Shown: piece by piece, positions 3,727-56,611 of the stretch
Layout of the letters: each line of letters begins with the position of its first letter
Numbering within the stretch: the stretch's first letter is position 1
Assembly (NCBI GenBank): GCA_964590105.1
Contig: CAZPYM010000003.1
Location: forward strand, 72,179-136,178
Length of the DNA: 64,000 nucleotides
Source of the DNA: an uncultured Gammaproteobacteria bacterium
GTDB taxonomy: Bacteria; Patescibacteriota; Patescibacteriia; UBA11705; JABHMO01
Direction of reading: 5' to 3'
The notes under the pieces: generated by a model
What the model was told of the DNA's origin: nothing
The model's database searches: none
Seen by the model: only the letters and a program-made list of their open reading frames with translations
Translations under genes and position numbers: made by a program

Positions 3727-4143
3727 ATGCCAACAATAAATCAATTAGTCCGACAGGGACGAAAAAGCGCGAAATCAAAGTCAAAAACACCGGCTTTGCA
3801 AACTGTTTTTAATACTTTAAAAAGACGACGCCGAACATTAAAAAAGGGAGCGTCTTTCAAACGTGGAGTGTGTCTGAAAGTGACTACTACGACTCCGAAA
3901 AAGCCGAACTCAGCCCTTCGAAAAATCGCTCGTGTGCGCTTGTCAAATGGCCAGGAGGTAACAACCTATATTCCTGGTGAGGGACACAATTTGCAGGAAC
4001 ACTCAATTGTCATGTTGCGCGGCGGCAGAGTAAAAGACTTGCCTGGTGTTCGTTACCATATTGTTCGTGGCGTGTATGATACGCAGGGAGTGGATGGCCG
4101 GAAGCAGTCTCGATCTTTGTACGGAGCAAAAAAAGCAAAATAA
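3727..4143 (+). CDS. rpsL: 30S ribosomal protein S12
   Basis: [13 protein letters not shown]...[10 protein letters not shown]...[10 protein letters not shown] is the canonical S12 sequence. Confidence 0.95.
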
Positions 4144-4204
4144 AATTGCTGATAATTGGTTTAATAGTTGATATCGGTGATTTTTTGTTCAAATCAAATT
4201 TAAA

Positions 4205-4252
4205 TCAACCAATTAACCAATTAACTAATTAACTAATTAACCAATCAACTAA
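4205..4252. repeat. tandem AATTAACY heptamer array (about 6 copies) in the rpsL-rpsG spacer
   Basis: caaccaattaaccaattaactaattaactaattaaccaatcaactaag. The reverse-complement copy lies at 2911-2950, with related copies at 36541-36568 (inside argS) and 63781-63825. Confidence 0.8.
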
Positions 4253-4353
4253 GTTGGGAGTAATGCGGTATAAAAGGTTTTCGTTATCGCGGGAAGAAAC
4301 CCGGGTCGTGAGCATATTATTTCGCGTGAATCTACACCAACTTCAATATTGTT

Positions 4354-4851
4354 ATGAGAGGGAAACAAGCGCCAAAAAGAAAGTTAAAGCCGGACATTCG
4401 CTATAATTCTACTCTGGTGGCTAAATTTATAAATTATCTAATGAATGATGGCGACAAGTCTATCGCTCAAAAGGTGATTTATAATTGTTTTGATGAAATC
4501 GAAAAAATGATTGCAACCGGCAAGATCAATAAAGAAGAGTATCCCAATGCACTCAGTGTTTTTGATCAAGCAGTAAAAAATGTTACCCCTCAAATGGAGG
4601 TTCGCGGCCGGAGAATCGGCGGCGGAAACTACCAAATACCGTATCCTGTGCGCGGAGAGCGCCGGGTTTTTTTGTCTTTGCATTGGTTGATTACAGCGGC
4701 TAAAAATAAAAAAGGCAAGCCTATGTCAGTAAAATTGACAAATGAATTGGTGGCTGCTTTGAATAATGAGGGCGATGCAGTAAAAAAGAAAATGGACGTT
4801 CACCGTATGGCAGATTCTAATAGAGCTTTTGCTCACTTTGCGCGTTATTAA
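4354..4851 (+). CDS. rpsG: 30S ribosomal protein S7
   Basis: 165 aa with an S7 signature (…NALSVFDQAVKNVTPQMEVRGRRIGGGNYQIP…). Confidence 0.93.
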   Translation: MRGKQAPKRKLKPDIRYNSTLVAKFINYLMNDGDKSIAQKVIYNCFDEIEKMIATGKINKEEYPNALSVFDQAVKNVTPQMEVRGRRIGGGNYQIPYPVRGERRVFLSLHWLITAAKNKKGKPMSVKLTNELVAALNNEGDAVKKKMDVHRMADSNRAFAHFARY

Positions 4852-4934
4852 AAATAAAAATTGTACGAATATACGAATGTAATGCAATTGTTGCGAATAT
4901 GCGAATAAAACGAATTCATTAATCTGTAATTTGT

Positions 4935-4972
4935 GATTCGCGTCATTCGCACAAAGATTCGCGTCATTCGCA
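4935..4972. repeat. two direct copies of the 17-mer GATTCGCGTCATTCGCA (reverse complement of the dispersed GCGAATGAYGCGAAT motif)
   Basis: Copies at 4935-4951 and 4956-4972 sit just upstream of the fusA start. They create a spurious N-terminal extension ([15 protein letters not shown]) in the ORF track. Confidence 0.8.
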
Positions 4973-4983
4973 TCATAATTTAT

Positions 4984-7062
4984 ATGCCGAGAGAATATTC
5001 TTTAGAAAATACCAGAAATATAGGTATTATCGCTCACATTGATGCCGGTAAAACTACGGTTTCCGAGCGCATTTTATTTTACACTGGGAAAAAACATAAG
5101 ATAGGAGAAGTTCATGAAGGACAGGCGGAAATGGACTGGATGGAACAGGAAAAGGAAAGAGGCATCACTATTACTTCTGCCGCCACCACTTGTTTTTGGA
5201 ACGGCAAAAGAATTAATATTATCGACACTCCCGGCCACGTGGATTTTACCGCCGAAGTGGAACGATCTTTGCGTGTGCTTGATGGCGGCGTGATAGTTTT
5301 TGACGGCGTAGCCGGTGTGGAGCCGCAGTCTGAGACTGTATGGCATCAGGCCGTGAAATACAATGTTCCGCGCTTGGGATTTATTAATAAAATGGATCGC
5401 ATGGGCGCGGATTTTTATGCTGACATGGAATCTATTTATGAGAGATTGACCAAGGCCGCTCATCCTATTCAGTTGCCGATCGGCGCGGCTGAAACATTTA
5501 GAGGAATTATTGATTTATTTGAAAGGCGAGCTTACATTCATGAGGATGACCTCGGAATAAAAATTAATGAAATCGATGTTCCCGAAGACATGAAAGAAAA
5601 AACAGAAAAATACCGTGGAAAATTAGTCGAAGCTATAGTTGAAAACGATGAAGCTTTGATGGATAAATATTTAGCCGGAGAAGAAATCCCCGTCGCAGAC
5701 TTAAAAAGAGTTTTGCGCAAGGCGACAATAGAAAACAAAATTGTACCAATCTTAGTTGGCAGCGCTCTGAAGAACAAGGGAGTTCAGGCATTACTTGACG
5801 CGATTGTCGACTTTTTGCCCTCACCACTTGAAATTCCACCAATGCAGGGCACTGATCCAAACGATCCTGAAAAAGTCATTACTGTGAACGCCAGCGATGA
5901 AGAGCCTTTTGCCGGCTTGGCATTCAAGATTGCCACTGATCCATATGTTGGCAAGCTTTGTTTTGTGCGCGTTTACTCAGGAGCTTTAAGGTCAGGTTCA
6001 TATGTATTAAATACTTTCACTAATAATAAAGAGAGAATCGGACGTTTAGTGCGTATGCACGCCAATCATCGAGAGGAGGTTAGTGAAGCTTTTGCTGGTG
6101 AAATAGTCGCGGTTATTGGTTTGAAAAATACTTTTACAGGGCATACTCTTTGCGATGAGAGTCGACCGGTTATCCTGGAAAACATTGTATTTCCCGAGCC
6201 GGTTATTTCAGTTGCTATTGAACCGAAAACCAAGGCTGATCAGGAAAAAATGGGTATGGCTATGCAAAAATTGGCTGAAGAAGACCCGACCTTTAGAATT
6301 CGCACTGACGAAGAAACAATGCAAACAATTATTTCCGGCATGGGGGAACTTCATTTGGATATTTTGGTTGATCGAATGAAAAGAGAATTTGGTGTGGAAG
6401 CTAATATTGGTAAACCGCAAGTGGCTTATAAAGAAACAATTAAAAAGACTGCAGAAGCAGAGGGAAAATATGTTCGTCAGTCAGGTGGCCGCGGACAATA
6501 TGGTCATTGCTGGCTTAGAGTCTCTCCTCGAGAACGCGGAGAAGGATTTGAATTTTTGGATGAAGTCAAGGGGGGCGCAATCCCGCGAGAATTTATTCCG
6601 GCAATTCAAAAGGGAGTCAAAGAATCGTTAGACAAAGGAATTCTGGCGGGTTATCCGCTCATTGATGTTCAGGTCACTGTTTACGATGGTAGTTTCCATG
6701 ATGTTGACTCTTCTGAGGCGGCCTTTAAGATTGCCGGTTCTCTGGCTTTTCAGGAAGCCACAAAAAGAGCTTCCCTCGTTCTTTTGGAGCCGATTATGAA
6801 AGTGGAAGCTGTGGTGCCAGAAAAATTTTTGGGCGACGTGGTTGGTGATTTAAATTCAAAAAGAGCGCAAATAAATGAAATGAAAGATCGCGCAAATGCC
6901 AAGGTTGTTGAGGCTCAGGTGCCGCTGGCTGAAATGTTTGGTTATGCGACTTCACTCCGATCAATGACACAGGGGCGCGGCAGCTACTCAATGGAATTTC
7001 TAAAGTATTCTGAAGTCCCGGCCAATGTGGTTGAGGCAATCTTAGTCGCAAAGGGACGGTAA
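4984..7062 (+). CDS. fusA: elongation factor G
   Basis: Start chosen at [25 protein letters not shown] (G1 motif). Full-length EF-G with DTPGHVDF and NKMD motifs. Confidence 0.95.
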
Positions 7063-30844: not shown

Positions 30845-33800
30845 ATGGAGATACCCAAAGCCTACGATCCGAAAGAGCATGAAAGCCGGATTTATAAAAT
30901 GTGGGAAGAGGCCGGGCTTTTTAATCCGGACAATTTGGAGCCTAAATCCAAAAAGCATTTTTCCATTGTTTTGCCGCCGCCAAATGTTACCGGCACACTG
31001 CACCTGGGGCATGCGGCCATGCTCGCAATAGAAGATTTAATGGTCCGTTACAAAAGGATGAATGGTTTTGATACCCTCTGGATGCCTGGCACTGATCACG
31101 CGGCGATTGCCACGCAAAACGTGGTTGAAAAAAAGCTTTACAAGGAAGAAAAAAAGACCAGGCACGATCTGGGTCGTGAGAAATTTTTAAAAAAAGTTGA
31201 GCAGTATGTGGAAGGCTCAAAAAATGTTATTCATAATCAATTGCGCAAAATGGGTTCAAGCCTGGACTGGAGCCGCGAAGCGTATACTCTCGATGAAGTC
31301 AGAAGCAAGGCAGTAAAAAAGGTTTTCAAACAAATGTATGAAGACGGGCTGATTTATCGGGGTTATCGGATTGTCAATTGGTGTCCGCGCTGCCATTCAA
31401 CGCTCGCGGACGATGAGGTTGATTACAAAGAAGAAAAAGCCAAGATTTACACTTTTAAATACGATAAAAATTTTCCATTTGCTATCGCCACAACGCGGCC
31501 GGAAACCAAACTTGGGGACACGGCAGTGGCTGTGCATCCTGACGACAAGCGCTATGCAAAATATATCGGTAAAACATTTGTCGCTGATTTCTGTGGTGTT
31601 AAGTTGAATATAAAAGTAATTGCCGATGATCAGGTTGAAAAAGATTTTGGCACCGGCGCGCTTGGCGTAACCCCGGCGCATAGTTTGATTGACTACGAAA
31701 TGGCGCAAAAAAATAAATTGCCGGTGATTAAAGTTATTGACGAGGATGGAAAAATAACGGTGGCTGGCGGAAAATTTCAGGGATTAAGCGCGGAACAGGC
31801 AAGAGAAAAAATTGTTGAAGAATTAAAAAAGCAGGGGCTTTTGGAAAAGCAGGAAGAGAATCAGCACAATTTATCTGTTTGTTACCGTTGTAAATCAGTA
31901 GTGGAGCCTTTGCCGAGCGAGCAATGGTTTATCAGTATAAGTTCAAAGTTCAAAGTTAAAAGTGAAAAGTTGAGAAAAATAATCGGGAAAAAAGAGGCAA
32001 GCTTGAAGGAAATTTCGCTCGCCGTGGTAAAGAGCGGGTCGATAAAAATAATTCCAGAGCGTTTTGAAAAAATTTATTATCATTGGATGGAAAATTTGCA
32101 TGACTGGTGTATTTCCCGGCAGATTTGGTTTGGGCACAGGATCCCTGTTTGGTACAAAAAGCAAAAACAAATTATTGTTTTGCGGCACGGACAGGCGGAA
32201 AGCAATGCCCGAGATCAGCTGAATTCCGATATTTTGCGGAATCATTTTCACTTGACCGTAGAGGGTAGGGAGCAGGCGGCCGCGGCGGCGGAAGAGCTGC
32301 AAAAAGAAAAAATTGACATTATTTTTTGTTCTGATTTCGAACGGGCAAAACAAACCGCCAAAATAGTTGCCGACAAATCGGGGATTAAGCAAATTATTGA
32401 AGACGCCAGACTCAGGGAAGTGGGAGTGGGGGATTTCGAAGGCAAATCCGATATGGACTTTACCAAATTTCGTCAGCAAAACTTTGACAAGTGGCATAAA
32501 GGAAATCCGCATAACATCGAGTCCTTTGTTGAATTAAGAAGCCGTGTATTTAATTTTCTTGACGAAATAAAACAAAAGTATGGAGATAAAAAGATTTTAA
32601 TGGTAACGCACGGCGATGTGGCGCGAGTGGCGCAGGCATACGGAAAAATTTTATCGGATAAAGAAATTTATGGCCTTGATTATCCGGATACCGGAAAGTT
32701 TTATCGCGTTGATTTAAATCAAAAAACATCTGGAATCGAACTTAGTTTTCGTAATCGAAAAATATTTGAAGCGATTAAATCCGGCAGCAAAACCATTGAA
32801 ACCAGAGCTTTGAATCCTGAAGAGCCGGATCGTTATTTTGGCAATATTAAAGGCGGCGATCAGATAATTTTGAATTATAAGCAAGGGGAGTATATTTTAG
32901 AAAGTTTAAAATCAAAAGTCAAAGCGGCGAGGCGGTACAAAACCATTGAAGAATTGTTAGCCAAGGAAAAGATGTCTAAAATTTTTCCCGGCAAAAACAT
33001 TGATTATAAAAAATCCTATTCTGATCTGGTGCCCGGAAATTTGGAAAAAATAAGCAAGAACGGAATAATAGCTTTTGAGCTTGGAAAAGTTGAAAAGTAT
33101 AATAAAAATATCACGCTTCGCGTTTCTGAAGAAGAACTGCCGGCTGCCGAATGGAAACAAGATGAGGATACTCTTGATACCTGGTTTTCTGCAGGTCTTT
33201 GGACTTTCAGTACGCTCTTGCCGAAGGATTGGGACGGAAAAGAATTTAAATCCAAGGATTTGGAACGATTTCATCCAACGACCGTGCTGGAAACCGGTTA
33301 TGACATTTTGTTTTTCTGGGTGGCGAGGATGATACTCATGACCACTTATGCGACGGGCGAAATACCTTTTGAAACAGTTTATCTGCACGGCCTGATTCGC
33401 GACAAAGACGGCGACAAAATGAGCAAATCCAAACCAGAGACGGCGATTGATCCGGTTGAAGCCGGCAATAAATATGGATTTGACGCGGTGCGTTTGAGCT
33501 TGCTTATCGGCAATACGGCGGGCAATGATATTCGGCTTTATGATGAAAAGATTGAGGGGTACAGGAATTTTGTTAATAAGTTGTGGAATATTAGTCGGTT
33601 TGTGTTGCAAAATAACAAATTACAAGACACAAATTACAAGCAAATTACAAATAACAAATTACAAACAGTTGCATTGACTTTAGCGGATAAGTGGATACTT
33701 TCGCGATTCAATAAGTTAAAATGCGAGGTAAATAAATTGCTGGATGAATATAATTTTTCACAGGCCGGCGAGATTTTGCGGGAATTTACCTGGAATGATT

Positions 33801-34483
33801 TTGCCGACTGGTATTTGGAAATTTCAAAAGTTGCCCTTCGGCAAGATCAGGGTGACAATCGAAATTTAATTTTGAATTCAATTTTTCGGGAATTGCTGAA
33901 ATTGTGGCATCCTTTTGTGCCGTTTGTGACAGAGGCTGTTTGGTCCCTCGCTATGCTCGGGATGACACAGCAAGCAAAAAGTATTATGGTTTCTGATTGG
34001 CCAGCGGTCGAAAAGGGATTAATTGATGAAAAAGCGGAAAAAGGATTTGAAAAAATTCAAGAAATAATTATTAAAATCAGAAATTTGCGGGCTGAATACA
34101 AAGTCAATCCGGGGAAGAAGATTTCTGTTTCCATCAAAGGCGCTTCAATTGGCGAAAATGAAATAGTTGTAAAAACCTTAGCTCGTCTGGAAAAAATTAC
34201 TTACGTAAAAATAAAACCGGAAAAAGCAGCCGGCGCGGTTGTCGGTAAAAGGGAGATTTATTTGTTGTTATCAGATTTGGTTGATGTTGATAAAGAAAAA
34301 GAGAGACTGGAAAAAGAAAAAGCCGACCTTGAAAAATATTGCTTCGGATTGGATAAAAAACTTCAGAATAAAGAGTTTACGAAAAATGCTCCGGTGGCCG
34401 TGGTTGACGGAGAGCGGGCAAAACTCACGGAGGCGGAAGAAAAATTAGGAAAAACAAATACGCAATTAAGTGAATTAAAATAA
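30845..34483 (+). CDS. valS: valyl-tRNA synthetase carrying an in-frame histidine-phosphatase (PGAM-like) + ASCH domain insertion
   Basis: HLGHA (HIGH), CP1 editing domain (TTRPETKLGDTAVAVHPDD), DWCISRQIWFGHRIPVWY, KMSKS, and a C-terminal coiled coil. Between WY (about 32154) and QDEDTLDTWFS (about 33158) about 330 extra residues contain IVLRHGQAESN and VTHGD (histidine phosphatase) and G-SKTIETR (ASCH). Length is 1212 aa against roughly 880 typical. Confidence 0.9.
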   Translation: MEIPKAYDPKEHESRIYKMWEEAGLFNPDNLEPKSKKHFSIVLPPPNVTGTLHLGHAAMLAIEDLMVRYKRMNGFDTLWMPGTDHAAIATQNVVEKKLYKEEKKTRHDLGREKFLKKVEQYVEGSKNVIHNQLRKMGSSLDWSREAYTLDEVRSKAVKKVFKQMYEDGLIYRGYRIVNWCPRCHSTLADDEVDYKEEKAKIYTFKYDKNFPFAIATTRPETKLGDTAVAVHPDDKRYAKYIGKTFVADFCGVKLNIKVIADDQVEKDFGTGALGVTPAHSLIDYEMAQKNKLPVIKVIDEDGKITVAGGKFQGLSAEQAREKIVEELKKQGLLEKQEENQHNLSVCYRCKSVVEPLPSEQWFISISSKFKVKSEKLRKIIGKKEASLKEISLAVVKSGSIKIIPERFEKIYYHWMENLHDWCISRQIWFGHRIPVWYKKQKQIIVLRHGQAESNARDQLNSDILRNHFHLTVEGREQAAAAAEELQKEKIDIIFCSDFERAKQTAKIVADKSGIKQIIEDARLREVGVGDFEGKSDMDFTKFRQQNFDKWHKGNPHNIESFVELRSRVFNFLDEIKQKYGDKKILMVTHGDVARVAQAYGKILSDKEIYGLDYPDTGKFYRVDLNQKTSGIELSFRNRKIFEAIKSGSKTIETRALNPEEPDRYFGNIKGGDQIILNYKQGEYILESLKSKVKAARRYKTIEELLAKEKMSKIFPGKNIDYKKSYSDLVPGNLEKISKNGIIAFELGKVEKYNKNITLRVSEEELPAAEWKQDEDTLDTWFSAGLWTFSTLLPKDWDGKEFKSKDLERFHPTTVLETGYDILFFWVARMILMTTYATGEIPFETVYLHGLIRDKDGDKMSKSKPETAIDPVEAGNKYGFDAVRLSLLIGNTAGNDIRLYDEKIEGYRNFVNKLWNISRFVLQNNKLQDTNYKQITNNKLQTVALTLADKWILSRFNKLKCEVNKLLDEYNFSQAGEILREFTWNDFADWYLEISKVALRQDQGDNRNLILNSIFRELLKLWHPFVPFVTEAVWSLAMLGMTQQAKSIMVSDWPAVEKGLIDEKAEKGFEKIQEIIIKIRNLRAEYKVNPGKKISVSIKGASIGENEIVVKTLARLEKITYVKIKPEKAAGAVVGKREIYLLLSDLVDVDKEKERLEKEKADLEKYCFGLDKKLQNKEFTKNAPVAVVDGERAKLTEAEEKLGKTNTQLSELK

Positions 34484-34488
34484 AATTT

Positions 34489-35673
34489 ATGAAAATCAAC
34501 ACTGACGAAAAAAAAATTAATGAACTCTTAACGCGCGGAGTTGAAAATGTTTATCCCAACCCAGAGTTTCTGGAAAAACTGCTTAAATCAGGCAAACAAT
34601 TAAAATTATATCTTGGCATTGATCCGACAGGTCCCAGTTTGCATATTGGTCATGCGATTAGTTTAATGAAACTGAAACAATTTCAGGACCTCGGCCACAA
34701 AGTGATTATGCTTATCGGCAGTTTTACCGCCATGATCGGCGATCCGACCGACAAATTGGCCACGCGCCAGCAATTGACGCGCAAGCAGGTCATGAATAAT
34801 TGTAAAAATTACAAAAAACAAGCAGCCAGCATTTTGGACATGAAAAAAACGGAGATTCAATACAATAGTCATTGGCTCGATAAATTAACTTTTAAAGAAG
34901 TTGTTGAATTGGCTTCAAAAATGACCGTACAACAAATGCTGGAGCGCGATATGTTTGAAAGGCGAATAGAAGACGGCAAACCAATTGGCTTGCATGAATT
35001 TTTATATCCGCTGATGCAGGGTTACGACTCGGTGGCCATGGATGTGGATGGGGAAATCGGCGGGAATGATCAGACTTTTAATATGCTCGCCGGCAGGACG
35101 CTGATGAAGGCGCTCAAGGGCAAGGAAAAGTTTGTTTTGACCAATAAACTCCTAGCAGACACTTCCGGGAAAAAAATGGGAAAAACAGAAGGCAATATGA
35201 TTGCGCTTGATAATTCCATTGACGACAAATTTGGCAAAGTAATGTCCTGGACAGACGACATGATTGCCGGCGGGTTTGAAATGTGCACTTTTGAGCCGAT
35301 GGAAATAGTCAAGCAAGTGGGAGAAAGATTGCAGCAAGGAGAAAACCCGCGTAATTTAAAACTGGAATTGGCCGAGGCGATTGTGAAAATTTATCACGGC
35401 GAAAAAGCTGCCAAAGCGGCGCGAGAAAATTTTTTGAATATGTTTCAGAAAAAAGAAACGCCTGATCAGCTCGATGAATTTGATCTGGCCGGAAAAAATA
35501 TTGTTGACGCATTATTGGAAGGCGGATTAGTTCAATCAAAATCTGAAGCTCGTCGGAATATTGAACAAGGCGGAGTGAAAATCAATGAAAAAGTTGAGAA
35601 AAATGCGGCAGCTGTTGTTCGTGCCGGGGATATAATTCAGAAAGGGAAAAGATTTTTTATCAAAATTAAGTAG
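34489..35673 (+). CDS. tyrS: tyrosyl-tRNA synthetase
   Basis: LHIGHA (HIGH), KMGKT (KMSKS-like), C-terminal S4-like domain. Confidence 0.92.
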   Translation: MKINTDEKKINELLTRGVENVYPNPEFLEKLLKSGKQLKLYLGIDPTGPSLHIGHAISLMKLKQFQDLGHKVIMLIGSFTAMIGDPTDKLATRQQLTRKQVMNNCKNYKKQAASILDMKKTEIQYNSHWLDKLTFKEVVELASKMTVQQMLERDMFERRIEDGKPIGLHEFLYPLMQGYDSVAMDVDGEIGGNDQTFNMLAGRTLMKALKGKEKFVLTNKLLADTSGKKMGKTEGNMIALDNSIDDKFGKVMSWTDDMIAGGFEMCTFEPMEIVKQVGERLQQGENPRNLKLELAEAIVKIYHGEKAAKAARENFLNMFQKKETPDQLDEFDLAGKNIVDALLEGGLVQSKSEARRNIEQGGVKINEKVEKNAAAVVRAGDIIQKGKRFFIKIK

Positions 35674-35675
35674 CA

Positions 35676-35730
35676 AGTTGTAAGGTTGTAAGTAAATTAC
35701 TACTTACTCACTTACAACTTTTAAATATAT
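35676..35730 (+). terminator. imperfect inverted repeat / terminator after tyrS
   Basis: agttgtaaggttgtaagtaa ... ttactcacttacaact followed by ttttaaat. It is built from the TTGTAAK repeat family. Confidence 0.4.
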
Positions 35731-36208
35731 GAAAATACTAGTTTTTACTGAAGGCACGGTTTTGAAGCATGTTTCAGATGACCGGATCAAGGATTATTCA
35801 AGCTATGTGCCGGTTGGTGGCGCGGTGGAAAAACTGACCGTCTGGACGGAAAATGGCGCGGAAATTTCTTATTTAACTTCCCGCGTCAAGTTTATGGAAA
35901 TCAAACAAATCAAGGACGTCTTGAAAAATTTTGATTTTCCGGGCGACATGGTTCACGCGAGGCAGGAAGACGAAACATATAAGCAGGTAGTTATGACCGT
36001 TAAGCCGGATCTTTTGATTGAGGACGACTGCAAGAGTATTGGTGGCGAAGCAGAGATGATTTCGTTTGGCTTAAAATCAGAAGCAGGCATTCATGTTATT
36101 GTCGTGCCGGAATTCGGCGGTATTGATCATTTGCCGGATAATTTGGAGGAATTGAAAGAGTTTGGAAAAAAAGAAGAGGTGGCTACAACCAGAGATGATA
36201 CTTATTAA
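35729..36208 (+). CDS. hypothetical protein (159 aa)
   Basis: Intact ORF between tyrS and argS. No motif recognised. Confidence 0.5.
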   Translation: MKILVFTEGTVLKHVSDDRIKDYSSYVPVGGAVEKLTVWTENGAEISYLTSRVKFMEIKQIKDVLKNFDFPGDMVHARQEDETYKQVVMTVKPDLLIEDDCKSIGGEAEMISFGLKSEAGIHVIVVPEFGGIDHLPDNLEELKEFGKKEEVATTRDDTY

Positions 36209-36244
36209 GTAAAAAGTAAATTTAAAGCTTAAAATTGAAATCGC

Positions 36245-37960
36245 ATGTTAGAGATAAAAAATAAATTAGCAAAAGTGCTTAGTGAGATTTTAAAGGTGGA
36301 AATCAATCCGGAAGATTTTACCGAGCCGCCGAAAAATGTTGAAGCAGACCTGGCTTTGCCGTGTTTTACTTTGGCCAAGGAACTAAGACGCGATCCGAAT
36401 GAGATTGCCGGCGAGTTGGGAGCAATGGTCAATGCGAAAAATTTAGTTATTATTGAAAAAGTAAAGTCGCTCGGCCCTTATATGAATTTTTTTATTGATT
36501 CGGAATATTTGGCGCAAGCTGTTTTATATTCTCAATTAACGAATGAACCAATTAACCAATTAACTAAAATCATGGTAGAATTTGCGCATCCAAATACGCA
36601 CAAAGCATTTCATATCGGGCATTTGCGAAATATTATTACCGGCGAATCAATTGTCCGGATTTTGCAAAACGCTGGATACAAAGTTACCCGGGCGAATTAT
36701 CAGGGTGATGTCGGTCTGCATATTGCCAAGGCGCTCTGGGGAATTGATCAGCTTCGGAATGAATACAAAGAAGTTAAGAAAAAGGACTTAGACGATAAAG
36801 TCGGGTTTTTGGGCAAAGCCTATGCGCTTGGCGGCCAGACATTTGAAAAAGATGAAAAAGCAAAACAAGAAATTTACAAGTTGAATGAAAAAATTTATAA
36901 CAAAGAAAAGTCGATTCAAGATGTTTATAAAACAACCAGGGCTTGGAGCCTGGAATATTTTGATAAAGTTTACAAACGAGTTGATTCACACTTTGACAGG
37001 TTATATTTTGAATCCGAGGTTTTTGAAAAGGGAAAACAAATTGTTTTGAAGTTTCTGGAAAAGGGCGTATTCAAGAGAAGCGAGGGCGCGGTCATATTTG
37101 AAGGTGAAAAATATGGCTTGCACAGCCGCGTTTTTGTCAATAGTTTGGATTTTCCGACTTACGAAGCCAAAGATCTGGCGCTGGCTGAAGCGCAGTTCAA
37201 AGAGTTTAAGCCGGACAGAATTATTCATGTTGTCGGCAAAGAACAAACAGAATATTTCAAGGTAGTATTTAAAGCACTTGAATTTACCCTACCGAAAAGC
37301 AAGGGCAGGGAAGAGCATCTGGCTTACGGCTGGGTTTCTTTGAAGTCCGGCAAAATGAGTTCGCGAACCGGGCAAGTTATTTTGGGCGAATGGCTTTTGG
37401 ATGAGATTGAAAAAAGAATTGCGGCAATTATGAAAGATAGTCCAGCGAAAGATAAGGATTTAATTATTAAAAAAGTTGCGTTGGCGGCTGTTAAATACGC
37501 GATGCTAAAGATTGGCGTCAAAGTTGATATGGCTTTTGATATTGAAGAATCCGTGAATACTTCTGGCGACAGTGGACCGTATTTACTTTACATTGTGGCG
37601 AGGATAAAGAGCATTTTGAAAAAGGTAAAGGGTAAAAGTGAAAAGCATGCCCTGAGCATGGTCGAAGGGTTAAAAGGAATTGAATCAATTAAGATAAATG
37701 AATATGAAAAAAGTTTGCTTTTAAAAGTGGCAAAGTTTGAGGAGGCGCAAGAGCTGGCGGCAAAAGAGCTGGATCCGTCGCAAATTGCCAAATACTTGTT
37801 TGAACTGGCGCAGGAATTCAATGGTTTTTATCACGAGTGTCCGGTATTGCAAGCTGAACAGGCTATTCAGGCATTTAGAATCAATTTAATAAAAAAAGTT
37901 GAGCAGACAATGACCAAAGGTCTAAATTTACTTGGAATCGAGCCTGTTGATGAAATGTAG
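36245..37960 (+). CDS. argS: arginyl-tRNA synthetase
   Basis: HPNTHKAFHIGHLRN (HIGH) and GKMSSRTG (KMSKS). An in-frame AACCAATTAACCAATTAAC repeat at 36541-36568 encodes EPINQLTK. Confidence 0.92.
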   Translation: MLEIKNKLAKVLSEILKVEINPEDFTEPPKNVEADLALPCFTLAKELRRDPNEIAGELGAMVNAKNLVIIEKVKSLGPYMNFFIDSEYLAQAVLYSQLTNEPINQLTKIMVEFAHPNTHKAFHIGHLRNIITGESIVRILQNAGYKVTRANYQGDVGLHIAKALWGIDQLRNEYKEVKKKDLDDKVGFLGKAYALGGQTFEKDEKAKQEIYKLNEKIYNKEKSIQDVYKTTRAWSLEYFDKVYKRVDSHFDRLYFESEVFEKGKQIVLKFLEKGVFKRSEGAVIFEGEKYGLHSRVFVNSLDFPTYEAKDLALAEAQFKEFKPDRIIHVVGKEQTEYFKVVFKALEFTLPKSKGREEHLAYGWVSLKSGKMSSRTGQVILGEWLLDEIEKRIAAIMKDSPAKDKDLIIKKVALAAVKYAMLKIGVKVDMAFDIEESVNTSGDSGPYLLYIVARIKSILKKVKGKSEKHALSMVEGLKGIESIKINEYEKSLLLKVAKFEEAQELAAKELDPSQIAKYLFELAQEFNGFYHECPVLQAEQAIQAFRINLIKKVEQTMTKGLNLLGIEPVDEM

Positions 37961-41110: not shown

Positions 41111-42544
41111 ATGAAACGGACAAAAATCGTCTGCACAATCGGACCGGCGTCGGACAAAAAGAATATTTTGAAAAAGCTCGTTCAAAACGGTATGAACGTG
41201 GCGAGGCTTAATTTTTCTCACAATGTTCACAAATATCATTTGCAAGTGATAAAAAATGTTCGTGCCATTGCGAGAGAGCTGGGACAGCCGATTGCCATTT
41301 TGCAGGATTTGCAGGGTCCGAGAATTCGGCTTGGCGATCTTCCTGAAAAAGGAATTGAGCTGAAAGCAGGCAAGCAGATTACATTGACGACGTACAAGGG
41401 AATTCAGCAGGAAAAAATTCCAGTTACTTACGAAAAAATGCACGAGGATGTCAAAGCCGGCGAAAGGATTTTGATTGCCGACGGGTTGATTCAGGTAAAT
41501 GTCCTTGAAGTGAAAGGACAGAACATTATTTGCAAAGTAATTAATGGCGGCAAAATTACTTCTCATAAGGGAATAAATTTGCCGGACACCAGCGTCAGCG
41601 TACCGGCTGTTTCTGGAAAAGACAAAGACGATTTGCTTTTTGGCGTGAAAAACAGAGTTGATTTTGTGGCCTTGTCTTTTGTGCGGACAGCCAAGGATGT
41701 TTATGACCTGAAGTATTTGATTCAAAAATATCAGCAAAAATTAAAAATAAAAGAAAAACAGCCGATAAAAGTTATAGTAAAAATTGAGCGTCGGGAGGCC
41801 ATTGAAAATATTGACGAAATTATTGAAGCCACGGACGCTGTGATGGTGGCGCGCGGCGATTTGGGCATTGAACTGCCGGCGGAAGACGTGCCGCTCATGC
41901 AAAAAATGATTATTGACAAGTGCCTGGCCGCGGCCAAACCGGTAATTGTGGCTACGCAGATGCTTGAGTCAATGATAATTAATCCCCGGCCAACGCGCGC
42001 CGAGGTCAGCGATGTGGCCAATGCGGTAATTGATCATACTGACGCAGTCATGCTGTCCGGCGAAACCGCTTCAGGAAAATATCCGGCGGTAGCGGTTGAA
42101 TACATGAAAAAAATAATTGAAAAAACAGAAAAATCAACATATGATGATTTGGTTTTGCAGGAGAAAGTAAAAAAAATTGTGCCTACAAGCGACGCGGTCA
42201 GCAGTGTGGCGAAAATGCTGGCTGAACACGTGAAAGCTAAATTGATTTTAGCCGCCTCGCTTTCCGGTTATTCCGGCCGAATCGTCAGCCGCTACCGTCC
42301 GGAATTGCCGATTTTGGTTGCTTGCGATAATGAGCGAACCGAGCGCCAATTGAATTTGAGCTGGGGCATTATTCCGTTTGTTCTCCCGCGCTGTGATTCC
42401 ATTGAAGAGCTGCTTGATCGTTCAGTCGGGTATTTAAAGAAAAATAAGTATCTTTTTAAAGAAGATAAGATAATTATCGTGGCCGGCGAGCCGGTTGGCA
42501 GGAGCGGGAATGTTAATTTGGTTGAGATTAAAACGATAAACTAG
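41111..42544 (+). CDS. pyk: pyruvate kinase
   Basis: MKRTKIVCTIGPAS...NFSHN... and ...MVARGDLGIE... Confidence 0.92.
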   Translation: MKRTKIVCTIGPASDKKNILKKLVQNGMNVARLNFSHNVHKYHLQVIKNVRAIARELGQPIAILQDLQGPRIRLGDLPEKGIELKAGKQITLTTYKGIQQEKIPVTYEKMHEDVKAGERILIADGLIQVNVLEVKGQNIICKVINGGKITSHKGINLPDTSVSVPAVSGKDKDDLLFGVKNRVDFVALSFVRTAKDVYDLKYLIQKYQQKLKIKEKQPIKVIVKIERREAIENIDEIIEATDAVMVARGDLGIELPAEDVPLMQKMIIDKCLAAAKPVIVATQMLESMIINPRPTRAEVSDVANAVIDHTDAVMLSGETASGKYPAVAVEYMKKIIEKTEKSTYDDLVLQEKVKKIVPTSDAVSSVAKMLAEHVKAKLILAASLSGYSGRIVSRYRPELPILVACDNERTERQLNLSWGIIPFVLPRCDSIEELLDRSVGYLKKNKYLFKEDKIIIVAGEPVGRSGNVNLVEIKTIN

Positions 42545-42546
42545 GT

Positions 42547-44919
42547 ATGACAAAGAAAAATAAGTATATTTTGTTTTTTCGGGAAATCAATAAAACCGAC
42601 ATTGGTCTAGTCGGCGGGAAAAATGCCTCGCTCGGCGAAATGTATTCCAATTTGGGGAAAAGAGGCATTCTGGTTCCGGACGGTTTTGCAATTACAGCCA
42701 AGGCTTATTTTGATTTTATTGGCGAGGCAAAGATAAAAAATAAGATCGCTAAAATTTTAAAAGGCTTGGATGTGCAGAACGTAAGAGAGCTGGCGCTTCG
42801 AAGTTCAGAGGTCAGAGAATTAATTATACAGGCCGAGTTTTCAGAAAAACTTCAAACGCAGATTATTTCTGCCTATAATATTTTGTCAAAAAAATATAAG
42901 GCTGGAAATCTCGATGTGGCAGTGAGAAGTTCAGCCACGGCGGAAGACCTGCCAATAGCTTCATTCGCTGGGCAACTGGAGTCTTATTTGAATATTTCCG
43001 GAGAAAAAGAACTTTTACTGACAATAAAAAAATGTTTTGCTTCTTTGTTTACCAATCGAGCTGTTTCTTATCGGTATGACAAAAAATTTCCGCTGTGGAA
43101 AGTTGGAATTTCAGTGGGCGTGCAAAAAATGGTTAGAAGCGACAAAGCCGGCGCAGGCGTAATGTTTACCCTGGAAACTGAAAGCGGGTTTAAAGATTTA
43201 GTCATGATAAACGCGGGATTCGGGCTTGGCGAAAATGTGGTCAAAGGCAGAATAATGCCGGACGAGTATTTTGTTTTCAAAAAAACATTAGTCGGTAAAT
43301 TCAAGCCGATTATCAGAAAAGAAATCGGAAAAAAAGAATGGAAATTGATTTATAGTTTCAATAAACAAAAGTCCACGAAGAATTTATTAACCCCAAAAGC
43401 GGAGCGGCAGAAATTTGTGTTGAGCGATTCTGAAATTTTACAGCTGGCAAAATGGGGCGTGGAAATAGAAAAATATTTTAACAAGCCGATGGATATTGAG
43501 TGGGCCAAGGACGGAAATGACAAGAAAATTTATATCGTGCAGGCGCGGCCTGAAACGGTTCATTCTCAAAAAAATCAAAATATTTTCGAAGAGTATACGC
43601 TCTTGGCAAAATCAAAGGTTATATTAAAAGGTTTGAGCGTCGGCAATAAAATTGGCAGCGGGCAAGTGCGGATTGTAAAAAATCCCGCGGAATTGAGCCG
43701 TTTCAAGCAAGGCGAAATTTTGGTGGCGAAAATAACTGACCCAGCCTGGGAGCCGATTATGAAAGCGGCCGGAGCCATTATTACTGACAGCGGCGGCAGG
43801 ACGTGCCACGCGGCAATAATCAGCAGAGAGATGGGAGTTCCCTGCGTGGTGGGGACAAAACAAGCAACTTCAATTTTAAAAAATGGACAAAAGATTACGG
43901 TTGACTGTTCCGAGGGAACAGACGGAACAATTTATCAGGGTGAGTTAAAAATTAACAAAAAGAAAATCAATCTGTCAAAAGTAAGCTTACCAAAAAAAGT
44001 AAAAATAATGATGAATATCGGCAATCCTGATATTGCTTTTGCCAGTTCTTTCCTGCCGAATAGCGGCGTGGGATTGGCGCGCGAAGAATTTATTATCAGT
44101 AATTATGTCGGCATCCATCCTTTGGCGCTCCTTGATTATTGCCGTTTGCCCTTGAAGCTTAAAAAGCAGATTGAAGAGTTAACGCCGAATTATAAAGATA
44201 AAAGCCAATATTATATTGATCGGTTGTCGCAGGGGGTAGGCCAGATAGCGGCGGCTTTTTATCCGAAAGAAGTAATCGTGCGTTTTTCTGATTTTAAAAC
44301 CAATGAATATCGCAGTTTGGTCGGCGGCAATCTTTATGAACCAAAAGAAGCCAATCCAATGATCGGTTGGCGCGGCGCTTCGCGGTATTATGATCCGAAG
44401 TTCAAGAAAGCGTTCATTATGGAAATCGAAGCGATCAAAAAGGCACGCGAAGTTTTTGGTTTAGACAATATAAATGTGATGATTCCGTTTTGCCGCAGCG
44501 TGGAAGAAGCAAAAAAAGTCATGGCGATATTAAAGCAAAACGGTTTAAAAAGAAGTAAAAAATTGAAAGTATATTTGATGTGTGAATTGCCGGTTAATGT
44601 TTTGAACGCTGAATCATTCTTGCCTTTGGTTGACGGCTATAGCATCGGCAGCAATGATCTGACGCAGCTGACTCTCGGCGTTGACCGCGATTCTGAGCTG
44701 GTCAGCCATATTTATAATGAATTGAACCCTGCTGTTTTGAAAAGTCTGGCGCAGGTAATTTCCACCTGCCGCCGGATGAAGAAAAAAGTGGGAATTTGCG
44801 GGCAGGCACCGTCCGACTTTCCGGAATTTGCTAGGTTTTTAGTGAAAAATAAAATTGATTCAATGTCTCTAACTCCGGATTCGGTGATTAAAACCATAAA
44901 GAAAATAAAAAACAAATGA
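42547..44919 (+). CDS. ppsA: phosphoenolpyruvate synthase (pyruvate, water dikinase)
   Basis: 790 aa. ATP-grasp N-terminus, phosphohistidine domain GGRTCHAAIISREMGVPCVVG, and a PEP-utilising TIM barrel. Confidence 0.88.
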   Translation: MTKKNKYILFFREINKTDIGLVGGKNASLGEMYSNLGKRGILVPDGFAITAKAYFDFIGEAKIKNKIAKILKGLDVQNVRELALRSSEVRELIIQAEFSEKLQTQIISAYNILSKKYKAGNLDVAVRSSATAEDLPIASFAGQLESYLNISGEKELLLTIKKCFASLFTNRAVSYRYDKKFPLWKVGISVGVQKMVRSDKAGAGVMFTLETESGFKDLVMINAGFGLGENVVKGRIMPDEYFVFKKTLVGKFKPIIRKEIGKKEWKLIYSFNKQKSTKNLLTPKAERQKFVLSDSEILQLAKWGVEIEKYFNKPMDIEWAKDGNDKKIYIVQARPETVHSQKNQNIFEEYTLLAKSKVILKGLSVGNKIGSGQVRIVKNPAELSRFKQGEILVAKITDPAWEPIMKAAGAIITDSGGRTCHAAIISREMGVPCVVGTKQATSILKNGQKITVDCSEGTDGTIYQGELKINKKKINLSKVSLPKKVKIMMNIGNPDIAFASSFLPNSGVGLAREEFIISNYVGIHPLALLDYCRLPLKLKKQIEELTPNYKDKSQYYIDRLSQGVGQIAAAFYPKEVIVRFSDFKTNEYRSLVGGNLYEPKEANPMIGWRGASRYYDPKFKKAFIMEIEAIKKAREVFGLDNINVMIPFCRSVEEAKKVMAILKQNGLKRSKKLKVYLMCELPVNVLNAESFLPLVDGYSIGSNDLTQLTLGVDRDSELVSHIYNELNPAVLKSLAQVISTCRRMKKKVGICGQAPSDFPEFARFLVKNKIDSMSLTPDSVIKTIKKIKNK

Positions 44920-53098: not shown

Positions 53099-56000
53099 GT
53101 GTTTATGAAATATACCCCTCTCCATGTCCACAGCCATTATTCATTGCTTGACGGCCTGACCAAGATTGACGATCTGGTGGGCAAAGCAAAAGAAGACGGC
53201 ATGACTGCGCTCGCATTGACCGACCACGGTGTGATGTATGGCGCGATTGAGTTTTATCAAAAATGCAAAGCCGCGGGCATCAAGCCGATAATCGGCGTGG
53301 AAGCGTATATTGTTAATGATCGAAAGGAAAAGAAAGCGTCTGAAGAAGAGCGCTTTCATTTGATTTTATTAGCCAAGAATTACGAAGGGTACAAAAATCT
53401 GATCAAGCTGACAACGCTCGCTCATTTGGAAGGATTTTATTACAAGCCGCGCATTGATTGGGAGATTCTGCGGAAATATAGTAAAGGACTTATTGGTTTA
53501 TCTGCTTGTCTGGCCGGCGAAATACCGCGGGCGATTACCAGGGGGCTCGACGACGAGAAAATTGAATTAGTAATAAAAAAATATTTAAATGTTTTTGGCA
53601 AAGACAATTTTTATCTGGAAGTCCAGCACCATCCGAATATCCCTGATCAAAAAGTGGTAAATAATAAAATTTTTGAAATAGCCAAGCGCTTGGGATTGGA
53701 AGTCGTGGCCACGAATGACAGCCATTATTTAAATACAGAAGATGCGGAAGCGCATGATATTTTAATCTGCCTTCAAACAAAAAAATTGCTCAGTGATACT
53801 GACCGCATGAGCTATCTTGGCGAAGATTTTTCTTTGTATACTTCACAGCAGATGACTGACAATTTTCGCGGCAATCCGGAAGTTCTGGAGAACACCAATA
53901 AGATTGCGGATAAATGTGAAATAGAAATTCCGCTTGGCGAGATCAGATTGCCGTACTTTGAAGTACCGGAAGGGCAAACTGATTTTGAGTGTTTGCGTGA
54001 CCTTTGTTATCACAATATAGCCCGCCGCTATAATTTTGATTATAAAAAAGAGCAATTAATTGAAGCTGAAAAAAAAGTTATCGGCCGATTGGAATTTGAG
54101 CTCGGCGTTATTCAGCGCACCGGTTACTCTTCATATTTTTTGATTGTGCAGGATTTTACCAGCTGGGCGAGAAGCAAAGGGATCATTGTTGGACCTGGCC
54201 GCGGCTCGGCAGCCGGGAGCATAGTTTCATATTTGCTTGGCGTGACCAATTTGGATCCACTTCAATATGATTTGTTGTTTGAAAGATTTTTAAATCCGGA
54301 CCGTATTTCAATGCCTGATATTGATATTGATTTTGCTGATGAACGCCGCGCTGAAGTTATTCATTATGTCGAAGAAAAATACGGCAAAGATCACGTGGGC
54401 CAGATTATTACTTTTGGCACAATGGCCGCCCGGGCGGCGGCGCGCGACGTGGGCCGGGTGCTCGACATGCCGTATACGTTTTGCGATCAGGTGGCCAAAT
54501 TGATTCCAATGGGAATTAAACTGGATGAAGCTATCAACAAGGTAGTTGAAGTCAAAGAATTATATCGCAGCAATGATGATGCCCGGCGGCTTTTGGATTT
54601 CGCCCGCAAGCTGGAAGGCGTGGCCAGACATGCTTCCACGCATGCTTGCGGCGTGGTTATTACCAGAGAGCCGCTGGATAATTATTGTCCCTGTCAATTT
54701 GCCAGAGATCAGGAAGACGTAATCGTCACTCAGTATTCACTTCATCCGGTTGAAGATCTCGGCCTTTTGAAAATGGATTTTTTGGGTTTAAAAAACCTGA
54801 CTATTATCGAGAGAGCCTGTGAAATTGTGGAAAAAATGCATGGACAAAAAATAGTTATTGATGATTTGCCTCTGGGGGACATAAAAGCTTACGAACTGTT
54901 TCAGAACGGTCAGACAACCGGTGTTTTTCAATTTGAATCGAGCGGCATGAAAAGATATTTAAAACAGTTAAAACCGACGGAATTCGAAGACCTGATCGCC
55001 ATGGTCGCGCTCTATCGTCCGGGACCGCTTAATTCCGGCATGGTGGATGAATTTATTGCCAGAAAGCATGGCTTGAAAAAAATTGCCTATGTTCATCCGT
55101 TGATGGAAAACGCTTTGAAAAATACTTACGGCGTTATTGTTTATCAAGAGCAGGTCATGCAGCTTTCAAAAGATATGGCCGGTTTTACCGGCGGTCAGGC
55201 GGACACTTTGCGCAAAGCTATAGGAAAGAAAATCGCCGACTTGATGGAAAAAATGAAAACTGTATTTATTGAAGGCTGTATAAAAAATAACATTTCCAAG
55301 CAAATAGCTGAGCAGACATTTGAATCAATGGAAAAGTTCGCAGAATACGGATTTAATAAATCCCATGCCGCTTGTTATGCGCTCATTGCTTATCAGACGG
55401 CATTTCTTAAAGCAAATTTTCCTACTGAATTTATGGCGGCCCTTCTTACTTCAGATCAGGGAAATTTGGACAGAGTGGCAATTGAAATTGATGAATGTCA
55501 GCAGATGGGAATAGAAATTATGCCGCCAAGTATTAATGAAAGTTATTCCACTTTTACTGTAGTCGCCGATTCATTAAAACAAGGAACTCCAAGAATTCGT
55601 TTTGGCTTGAACGCAATTCGTAATGTCGGAGAAAACGTGGCCAGAGAGATTATTCATGAAAGAAAAGACAACGGCGCGTATATAGAACTGGAAGATTTTT
55701 GCAGCCGGCTCGGCAACCGGGCGCTGAATAAAAAATCTCTTGAAGGATTGATAAAAAGTGGCGCCATGGATCTTTTTGGTTCGCGTTCACAGCTGTTGGA
55801 TAATGTTGATAAAATTATAATGTTTATTCGAGAGGTTGAAGCGTCGCGCGCAACAAAACAGGTAAATATTTTTGATTTAAATAATTCACCTGACGCAACT
55901 TTACCGCGCATATTGCTCCGTCAGAGCAAAGATCTGGGACTCAAGCAAATACTTGCCTGGGAAAAAGAATTTTTGGGATTATACGTATCAGAGCATCCGT

Positions 56001-56611
56001 TCAAAAATTATGAAAAGAAATTACAGGGCCTGGTAACGCCGCTTTCAGAATTAAAAATCGGGGGCGACAGGCAATTGGTGCGCATTGCCGGCGTGGTGGC
56101 CAGCGTGAAAAAAATCACCACAAAAAAAGGCGATCCGATGCTATTTGTTTCCCTGTCCGATGCTTTGCGGGCGGTTGAAATATTAGTATTCCCTCGTTTG
56201 TACAAGGAAGATGAAGTGATCTGGCACGACGGCAAAGTTTTGATGGTAGAGGGAACAGTTTCCGACAAAGATGAAGAAATAAAAATTTTAGCCAATAAAG
56301 TCTGGGCCATTGATGAGATTGGCCTCGAGACAATACCAAAGGAAATGAACAGCGAATCACCGCGAGGCAGATTTAGTGGCGCCGGCCGGGGGAAAACGGT
56401 TTTGCGGGCGATAATAAATTACCCGGCCGGCGCAACTCATGATTTTGCCAATCAGGTAAAAATGCTTTTCATGGCAATCCCCGGCCGGCATCAAGTAATA
56501 TTTCGGATTCAAGACAAGCTGATAAAAACTAATTTTTTAATCAGCGTGGATGAAGAAAGTAGGTTGAAAATAGAATCTTTGCTTGGCAAGGGGACACTGA
56601 AGCAATTATAA
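53099..56611 (+). CDS. dnaE: DNA polymerase III alpha subunit
   Basis: PHP domain HVHSHYSLLDG, polymerase core, OB fold. 1170 aa. Confidence 0.92.
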   Translation: MFMKYTPLHVHSHYSLLDGLTKIDDLVGKAKEDGMTALALTDHGVMYGAIEFYQKCKAAGIKPIIGVEAYIVNDRKEKKASEEERFHLILLAKNYEGYKNLIKLTTLAHLEGFYYKPRIDWEILRKYSKGLIGLSACLAGEIPRAITRGLDDEKIELVIKKYLNVFGKDNFYLEVQHHPNIPDQKVVNNKIFEIAKRLGLEVVATNDSHYLNTEDAEAHDILICLQTKKLLSDTDRMSYLGEDFSLYTSQQMTDNFRGNPEVLENTNKIADKCEIEIPLGEIRLPYFEVPEGQTDFECLRDLCYHNIARRYNFDYKKEQLIEAEKKVIGRLEFELGVIQRTGYSSYFLIVQDFTSWARSKGIIVGPGRGSAAGSIVSYLLGVTNLDPLQYDLLFERFLNPDRISMPDIDIDFADERRAEVIHYVEEKYGKDHVGQIITFGTMAARAAARDVGRVLDMPYTFCDQVAKLIPMGIKLDEAINKVVEVKELYRSNDDARRLLDFARKLEGVARHASTHACGVVITREPLDNYCPCQFARDQEDVIVTQYSLHPVEDLGLLKMDFLGLKNLTIIERACEIVEKMHGQKIVIDDLPLGDIKAYELFQNGQTTGVFQFESSGMKRYLKQLKPTEFEDLIAMVALYRPGPLNSGMVDEFIARKHGLKKIAYVHPLMENALKNTYGVIVYQEQVMQLSKDMAGFTGGQADTLRKAIGKKIADLMEKMKTVFIEGCIKNNISKQIAEQTFESMEKFAEYGFNKSHAACYALIAYQTAFLKANFPTEFMAALLTSDQGNLDRVAIEIDECQQMGIEIMPPSINESYSTFTVVADSLKQGTPRIRFGLNAIRNVGENVAREIIHERKDNGAYIELEDFCSRLGNRALNKKSLEGLIKSGAMDLFGSRSQLLDNVDKIIMFIREVEASRATKQVNIFDLNNSPDATLPRILLRQSKDLGLKQILAWEKEFLGLYVSEHPFKNYEKKLQGLVTPLSELKIGGDRQLVRIAGVVASVKKITTKKGDPMLFVSLSDALRAVEILVFPRLYKEDEVIWHDGKVLMVEGTVSDKDEEIKILANKVWAIDEIGLETIPKEMNSESPRGRFSGAGRGKTVLRAIINYPAGATHDFANQVKMLFMAIPGRHQVIFRIQDKLIKTNFLISVDEESRLKIESLLGKGTLKQL

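Follow-up and report, generated by a model that had tools for sequence, protein, structure and literature searches.

A valine–tRNA ligase from a Patescibacterial contig with a predicted histidine phosphatase and a predicted ASCH domain in its CP3 loop

The stretch of DNA analysed here (the window) comprises 64 kb of contig CAZPYM010000003.1 (assembly GCA_964590105.1) and contains the gene valS at positions 30845..34483 of the forward strand. According to the open reading frame (ORF) list, the equivalog models and an AlphaFold2 model, the product of 1212 aa plus stop is a complete valine–tRNA ligase (ValRS) that carries an in-frame insert of 334 aa (aa 438-771, 32156..33157, +), lodged in the hairpin of connective peptide 3 (CP3); all amino acid numbers below refer to this product. 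Two predicted enzyme domains follow each other in the insert, a histidine phosphatase of the His_Phos_1 family and an ASCH domain. Judging from the related sequences, one loop, CP3, is in the Patescibacterial valyl-, isoleucyl- (IleRS) and leucyl-tRNA synthetases (LeuRS) repeatedly the site of small hydrolases, which occur singly or in arrays. As to function, we give an even chance to the proposal that the window protein would be a working ValRS with two tethered hydrolases acting in cis on a ligand of the synthetase that contains a nucleotide.

In the ORF list of the window, the valS frame runs through all 1212 aa with neither a stop nor a frameshift. The product passed two NCBIfam valS equivalogs, NF004349 (1024 bits, cut-off 704) and TIGR00422 (933 bits, cut-off 612), and the equivalog match is broken into two parts that lie exactly on either side of the insert. 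When 111 related ValRS were aligned, the window protein agreed with them in every invariant column. These columns include H53 and G55 of the HIGH motif (HLGH, aa 53-56, 31001..31012, +), K858 and K861 of the KMSKS motif (aa 858-862, 33416..33430, +), the editing motifs TTRPET and GTG..TPAH, and the pocket residues D778, W780, F781, and S782. In the AlphaFold2 model, aa 1-1150 of the ValRS had a mean predicted local distance difference test (pLDDT) score of 86, and the best match in the PDB was 1gax_A, from the Thermus ValRS-tRNA complex, with a target-normalised TM-score (TMt) of 0.84. The HIGH motif, the CP1 editing domain, the KMSKS motif, the anticodon-binding domain, and the C-terminal coiled coil are common to the Thermus thermophilus enzyme and the window ValRS, whereas the latter has 334 extra residues, forming two enzyme domains, in the CP3 hairpin. 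In Thermus ValRS, the CP3 hairpin is a zinc knuckle. By these comparisons the host protein is a genuine valine–tRNA ligase with an intact core. The first-pass annotation of this DNA, which was made from the letters and the ORF list, had described the synthetase motifs as intact, and both the equivalog scores and the fold match agree; prediction of the structure of the full protein gave the ValRS fold together with a confidently modelled His_Phos domain.

The same annotation had reported an in-frame insert of about 330 aa at 32155-33157. The insert was indeed found, with 334 aa, no frameshift and both junctions in frame; the end coordinate stood, and the start has to be corrected to 32156, as 32155 is one base out of frame. 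On its left side, the anchor DWCISRQIWFGHRIPVWY (aa 420-437, 32102..32155, +) comprises the linker between CP2 and CP3 as well as the first of the two strands in the CP3 hairpin. The last part of the insert, YNKNITLRVSEEELPAAEWK (aa 753-771, 33101..33157, +), is a return segment that leads to the ValRS core and provides the second strand of the hairpin; it aligns with (E)IYVGxExPxGxGW in ValRS that have no insert, and in those that bear an ASCH it aligns with the tail. The right anchor QDEDTLDTWFSAGLWTFS (aa 772-789, 33158..33211, +), in which the four invariant pocket residues are found, is where the Rossmann fold resumes with its second half. The hairpin of CP3 is opened by the insert at its turn, with IPVWY before and ITLRV after the insert. 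The junction residues are WY followed by KKQKQI on the N side and EWK followed by QDED on the C side, and the frame is kept at both. Measured between the inner anchors W-x-ISRQ and D-T-L-D-T-W-F-S, which lie slightly inside DWCISRQIWFGHRIPVWY and QDEDTLDTWFSAGLWTFS, the spacing is 348 aa here versus 32 in insert-free Patescibacterial ValRS. In class Ia nomenclature, the DWCISRQIWFG of the window ValRS is the counterpart of the CP2-CP3 linker of yeast IleRS. In that enzyme (ScIleRS), the linker 453ARDWNVSRNRYWG465 is part of the binding pocket for the CCA end of the tRNA and is directly followed by CP3 (PMC7955072). By this correspondence, the insertion site is CP3, a small subdomain located after WCISRQ and adjoining the linker of the CCA-end pocket.

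The first of the inserted domains (aa 443-626, 32171..32722, +) is a branch-1 His_Phos_1 domain whose predicted catalytic residues are R447, H448, N454, R500, E525, and H589. The Pfam model PF00300 matched it with 131.8 bits (gathering cut-off 21.7; E 3e-38) over positions 1-183 of the 194 in the profile. The two segments in which the first-pass annotation had seen a complete branch-1 catalytic core, IVLRHGQAESN and VTHGDVARV, correspond to aa 444-454 and aa 587-595, and the core is indeed complete. None of the six catalytic residues varies among 32 copies of this RHG subtype that are embedded in ValRS and have a median pairwise identity of 45%; invariance of this kind across diverged copies is the signature expected of a maintained active site. 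In the full-length model, the domain has a pLDDT of 90-98. Its closest solved proteins are PhoE (1ebb/1h2e), PspA (4ij5), and CobC (6nru), with E about 1e-11, and the alignment to PhoE 1h2e covers the RHG, R, E, and H positions. With these enzymes (1h2e, 4ij5, 6nru) the window copy shares a full His_Phos_1 of ~185 aa, in which RHG, the second Arg, Glu, and His are aligned; however, they are free-standing proteins of ~200 aa, whereas the window copy is embedded in a synthetase loop. The earlier label of a "PGAM-type" (phosphoglycerate mutase-type) domain is imprecise, as all equivalog models of the 2,3-bisphosphoglycerate-dependent phosphoglycerate mutase (dPGM) are far under their cut-offs. 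The best of them, NF038349, reached only 100 bits against a cut-off of 225, and the dPGM model TIGR01258 reached 49 bits against 81.7 and matched the N-terminal half only. Assignment to CobC or PspA was rejected as well. Since every NCBIfam equivalog score fell under its cut-off, no specific substrate can be assigned to the domain, and the embedded phosphatase is best described, from its sequence, as a PhoE/CobC-like branch-1 enzyme that is not demonstrably a mutase.

The second domain (aa 631-752, 32735..33100, +) was recognized from profile and fold evidence as an ASCH domain of a subtype designated here LNPEEP, which has an extra, nearly invariant loop, ALNPEEPxRYFG. Its GKER octapeptide, G647-S-K649-T-I-E652-T-R654 (32783..32806, +), lies at the end of FEAIKSGSKTIETR (aa 641-654), and 67 sequences agree in K649, E652, and R654 without exception; the segment IIAFELGKV is at aa 741-749. 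The Pfam ASCH model PF04266 gave 17.9 bits with the insert alone and 15.5 with the whole protein and missed its gathering cut-off of 21.2, which related copies do pass (P0182, for example, with 26.2 bits). A profile built from seven homologous ASCH modules (A1) found free-standing proteins of 113-118 aa that are named "ASC-1-like (ASCH)" and contain PF04266 (P0017, E 7e-25). Searched against the PDB, it matched the ASCH proteins PH0355 (2z0t, E 2e-5), PF0455, and PF0469. Similarly, an AlphaFold2 model of aa 628-760, computed from a 67-sequence alignment, had a pLDDT of 88, and the top nine PDB chains returned for it by Foldseek were all ASCH structures; the best was 2z0t (TMt 0.78), and 1s04, 1xne, 2kku, YqfB (9kyf/9kyh), and 3iuw were among the others. 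The ASCH domain with a GxKxxExR motif proposed in the first-pass annotation was thus upheld by the motif, the A1 profile and the fold, and not by the Pfam cut-off.

GxKxxExR is common to this domain and to PH0355 (2z0t), Escherichia coli YqfB (9kyf), and T. thermophilus TthASCH, the last being of the GKER type, and the beta-barrel fold matches. In contrast to typical ASCH proteins, the window copy has the ALNPEEPxRYFG loop, is embedded in a synthetase and stays under the Pfam cut-off. Both the sequence and the model indicate that the second inserted domain is a GKER-type ASCH with an intact Lys/Glu/Arg motif. To our knowledge, N4-acetylcytidine (ac4C) is the only substrate that has been demonstrated so far for the ASCH family. 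In a recent preprint, 19 ASCH proteins deacetylated the ac4C of tRNA, and the Lys and Glu of the GKER motif were essential (10.64898/2026.02.27.708502). Recent lateral transfer of the domain was considered and rejected: its identity to the copies in ValRS, in LeuRS and in free-standing proteins is uniformly 43-54%, and no donor stands out.

The full-protein search covered 5.8 billion proteins, and the counts that follow refer to the 119 nearest ValRS cluster representatives. PF00300 is present in 58 of them (~1057-1115 aa), always at the CP3 site, and the named carriers are all Patescibacteria (Falkowbacteria, Peregrinibacteria, Buchananbacteria, and Parcubacteria). The architecture, which the first-pass annotation knew from no other ValRS, is consequently not without precedent among public proteins. 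The combination of His_Phos and ASCH is also found elsewhere, in at least four arrangements. CP3 contains His_Phos plus ASCH in P0163 and P0182, and His_Phos-ASCH-His_Phos in P0167 (1414 aa), while the 1750-aa ValRS P0203 has an insert of 724 aa with His_Phos, ASCH, His_Phos, and a serine hydrolase. The order is reversed, ASCH then His_Phos, in P0227/P0378 and P0239, and in P0230 and P0236 the ASCH is near CP1 and the His_Phos in CP3. An RHG-type His_Phos followed by an LNPEEP-type ASCH is a pairing that was seen in the window protein only.

Other ValRS have different cargo at the CP3 site: ASCH alone, in two subtypes (P0154, P0157, and P0174; P0170, P0213, and P0226), a serine hydrolase with alpha/beta fold (P0151), or modules of ~76 aa with no Pfam match (P0124, P0125, and P0139, ValRS of 950-995 aa whose core is 72-73% identical to that of the window ValRS in P0124/P0125 and 66% in P0139). 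A core with 74% identity holds His_Phos only, one with 73% the 76-aa module, and one with 67% has an insert-free loop of 30 aa. Since close relatives differ in cargo, the loop changes its content on an unchanged core. Compared with the nearest relative, the insert is 54% identical and the core 74%.

On contig CAZPBK010000002.1 (L003), a DHH gene, valS and tyrS are syntenic with those of the window, and the encoded ValRS has 1063 aa and His_Phos only. Among the GTDB species representatives, the matches were this contig and an unrelated Clostridia phosphatase. The record of L003 is titled "uncultured Gammaproteobacteria", a label that is probably wrong, as the contig is syntenic with the window. 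A second subtype of ValRS-embedded His_Phos was also observed (P0163, P0182, P0167, P0203, P0136, P0140, and others), in which the Arg of RHG is missing (FVHG, FVHS, FPHG); the activity of this subtype may be altered or lost.

The insert alone was searched against 1.84 billion representatives. Among the best 150 matches, 65 proteins have at least 400 aa, and 60 of these 65 are IleRS (49) or ValRS (11). In all six IleRS whose flanks were read, one or two His_Phos domains follow WxISR(N/S)R in CP3, and in three of the six the His_Phos lies between the two CxxC zinc knuckles. The LNPEEP-type ASCH was found in the ZN-2 module of LeuRS, which is the same topological place as the CP3 site of ValRS, and at three different sites of ValRS, including before HIGH and at the start of CP1. 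It also occurs in an AspRS (aspartyl-tRNA synthetase) fragment and in small fusions with GNAT or NUDIX. A free-standing LNPEEP ASCH (P0017; L009, 3556-6342) begins on the final base of cysS, and the next gene is dus, which encodes tRNA dihydrouridine synthase. As read from these sequences, the link of the domains is to synthetases rather than to random large proteins, because 60 of the 65 large relatives of the insert are IleRS or ValRS and the ValRS copies form their own clade, and because ASCH of the same subtype is present in ValRS, in LeuRS ZN-2 and in the AspRS fragment, with the free-standing one between cysS and dus.

In a neighbour-joining tree of 218 His_Phos domains, about 40 ValRS copies form one clade, and the nearest neighbour of an IleRS copy is another IleRS copy in 45 of 56 cases. 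The clades follow the host synthetase, which suggests that a few insertion events were followed by inheritance and loss. Accessory enzymes in the connective peptides of class Ia synthetases are otherwise represented by the CP1 editing domains and by NCBIfam NF040702 (IleRS with an N-acetyltransferase domain). The present cases differ from both in the inserted families (His_Phos, ASCH, Ser_hydrolase, Ham1, and NUDIX), in the CP3 site and in a cargo that varies between close relatives.

The LeuRS of a Ca. Kerfeldbacteria genome (L011; GCA_016193315.1, JACPSJ010000001.1) is encoded by a continuous ORF of 1306 aa (2649-6569) and has three embedded domains: a Ham1p_like (aa 265-444), a NUDIX (aa 615-726), and an LNPEEP-type ASCH between the CxxC knuckles of ZN-2. 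Several ASCH-bearing LeuRS matches start at one motif, and a split LeuRS was considered for them. This was rejected, since the ORF is continuous in L011, where the deposited gene call (P0001) is shortened and comprises the last 522 aa only. Two other LeuRS/ASCH fragments, P0012 and P0013, end right after KNGLV, where their homologues go on with Gly or Ala; such ends would fit lineages in which UGA encodes Gly (code 25) and whose genes were translated with code 11.

In the function proposed above, the polypeptide would be made in one piece and stay unspliced, and both inserted domains would be active as hydrolases, tethered beside the synthetic site. The nucleotide-containing ligand on which they would act in cis would most likely be tRNA. 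The ASCH domain may bind tRNA, remove an N-acyl group (ac4C being a candidate), or do both. The phosphatase would take off a phosphomonoester, one candidate being the 2'/3'-terminal phosphate of an acceptor end that is damaged or blocked, and another a nucleotide such as 5'/3'-NMP (nucleoside monophosphate). As a net effect, tRNA(Val) or the local nucleotide pool would stay chargeable.

Several observations weigh against this proposal. The partner domains that occur elsewhere, Ham1 and NUDIX in LeuRS, are classic house-cleaning enzymes of free nucleotides, and a serine hydrolase is found in addition. The free-standing LNPEEP-type ASCH P0020 (L005-L008) follows a GNAT acetyltransferase gene, with a NUDIX two ORFs further upstream; in this case, the neighbours are not tRNA genes. 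ValRS cores that are 67% and 73% identical to that of the window have an empty loop or an unrelated module; as the insert is absent or replaced in close relatives, the cassette must be dispensable for ValRS function. Finally, the pLDDT of the ASCH region (aa 628-754) is <50 in the full-length model. The weak modelling is most likely due to shallow coverage in the alignment, since only about a dozen of the 111 alignment rows hold an ASCH at the CP3 site.

The main alternative is one that we regard as possible, at roughly one chance in four. According to it, enzymes of nucleotide salvage and house-cleaning (a nucleotide phosphatase, a YqfB-like N4-acylcytidine amidohydrolase, Ham1, NUDIX, and an esterase) would be lodged in permissive loops of constitutive synthetases and act on free metabolites, the synthetase being only their carrier in the tiny genomes of Patescibacteria. 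The families are those of nucleotide sanitation, with Ham1, NUDIX, and ASCH together in one LeuRS and with a His_Phos that is CobC/PhoE-like, and a solved ASCH structure, YqfB, is that of an ac4C nucleoside amidohydrolase. In addition, close relatives differ by gain, loss, and exchange of inserts, with no visible change in the ValRS core, and ASCH adjoins GNAT and NUDIX genes where it is free-standing and is fused to these families in ASCH-NUDIX and GNAT-ASCH proteins. However, aminoacyl-tRNA synthetases make up almost all of the hosts, and the loop used is mostly a single one of class Ia enzymes, whereas terminal fusion to any abundant protein would be an easier route to co-expression. The host-specific clades of embedded copies, kept over long divergence, also argue against mere lodging.

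It has also to be considered, as an unlikely explanation drawn by analogy, that the cassettes could be cis antidotes in biological conflicts, which would either reverse a modification of the synthetase or its tRNA by a toxin or destroy antibiotics that mimic the adenylate. The candidate attackers would be Hip-like kinases, which phosphorylate, toxSAS (toxic small alarmone synthetases), which pyrophosphorylate the CCA end, and GNAT toxins, which acetylate aminoacyl-tRNA; the antibiotics would be aminoacyl-adenylate mimics aimed at IleRS, LeuRS, ValRS, or AspRS. The host synthetases are targets of natural inhibitors and toxins, which can be counted in favour of this idea. The fast turnover of the cargo and the arrays of up to four different hydrolases are as expected in an arms race, all the chemistries (phosphatase, amidohydrolase, esterase, and NUDIX) are those of "erasers", and there is an NCBIfam model, NF040702, for IleRS with a GNAT domain. 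However, no PADLOC defence model matched, and around valS the window contains neither a toxin gene nor a defence island, the neighbours being tyrS, argS and housekeeping genes. The host-specific clades point to mostly vertical inheritance, and the idea rests on analogy only. Matches to PHROGs were to generic His_Phos and "RNA-binding protein" families only.

A broader version of the same thought, to which we give as little weight, is that in Patescibacteria the CP3 loop of class Ia synthetases might be a hypervariable dock for interchangeable "erasers" (phosphatase, N-acyl amidohydrolase, esterase, NUDIX, and Ham1), and hence a built-in layer of repair or immunity for the charging step. Such a dock would undo modifications that toxins or damage leave on the acceptor end, the tRNA bases or the synthetase, or it would destroy adenylate-mimicking inhibitors.

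Very improbable is an inert or structural insert, in which the domains would be relics that replace the zinc hairpin of CP3, or add bulk or RNA affinity, and catalyse nothing. The second His_Phos subtype of ValRS has lost the Arg of RHG (FVHG, FPHG), and the window insert evolves faster than the core, with the identities to the nearest relative given above. Against this stand the six catalytic His_Phos residues, unchanged in all 32 copies compared, and the equally unchanged K, E, and R of the ASCH motif.

Nothing besides the unusual length speaks for an artefact, whether valS had been wrongly joined to other genes in the assembly or the insert were an intein-like element excised from the protein, and as far as the sequence data reach this explanation can practically be dismissed: six contigs from independent assemblies (including ENA ERZ27248920 and JGI 3300028191) encode an identical product of 1212 aa, and the 58 ValRS clusters with His_Phos have it at the identical junction, so that the same junction recurs in dozens of homologues. 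In agreement with the first-pass annotation, which had seen no intein features, a Pfam scan returned no Hint or intein family at E <= 0.1, and the residues at the junctions, where the frame is kept, are unfit for splicing, with no nucleophile at the N-junction and no His-Asn plus Cys/Ser/Thr at the C-junction. A mobile element was rejected too, as only short chance repeats are present near 32156/33157, with no target-site duplication and no terminal inverted repeat. The base composition is unremarkable, the GC content of the insert (0.36-0.46) being inside the range of the rest of valS.

Aminoacyl-tRNA synthetases are among the most conserved enzymes, and in bacteria new catalytic domains are rarely gained by them. 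Synthetases with inserted accessory domains are already known, such as the CP1 editing domains and the IleRS-with-GNAT model. Full-text searches of open-access papers and bioRxiv turned up no paper in which a ValRS, IleRS, or LeuRS with an inserted His_Phos, ASCH, NUDIX, or Ham1 domain is described; such proteins are public under the generic names "class I tRNA ligase family protein" and "valyl-tRNA synthetase". The wider pattern, in which three class Ia synthetases have a variable hydrolase cassette in CP3, is of more interest than the one gene from which the analysis started. If the domains do act on tRNA or the synthetase, they would represent a new layer of tRNA quality control, repair, or immunity that is part of the charging enzyme, and the tRNA ac4C "eraser" activity recently reported for ASCH proteins would gain a physiological setting. 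If they are lodgers only, domain insertion would be an unusual route of genome compaction.

In the window, valS belongs to a valS–tyrS–159-aa ORF–argS cluster (30845-37960). Both tyrS (34489-35673) and argS (36245-37960) are of ordinary length and contain their usual Pfam domains only, and the 159-aa ORF between them (35729-36208) has no Pfam match. Two antisense ORFs lie inside valS, at 31943-32512 (-; 189 aa) and 32957-33610 (-; 217 aa); their products are of low complexity, and they are most likely not genes. Further along the window, a pyruvate kinase gene is directly followed by the gene of a phosphoenolpyruvate (PEP)-utilising enzyme (together 41111-44919) with the domains PPDK_N, PEP-utilizers, and PEP-utilizers_C, the set of pyruvate phosphate dikinase/PEP synthase. 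At 53099-56611, dnaE encodes a protein of 1170 aa with an ordinary domain set. A class II synthetase with the threonyl/alanyl second additional domain, again an ordinary set, is located at 59018-60823 and is probably the threonyl-tRNA synthetase (ThrRS).

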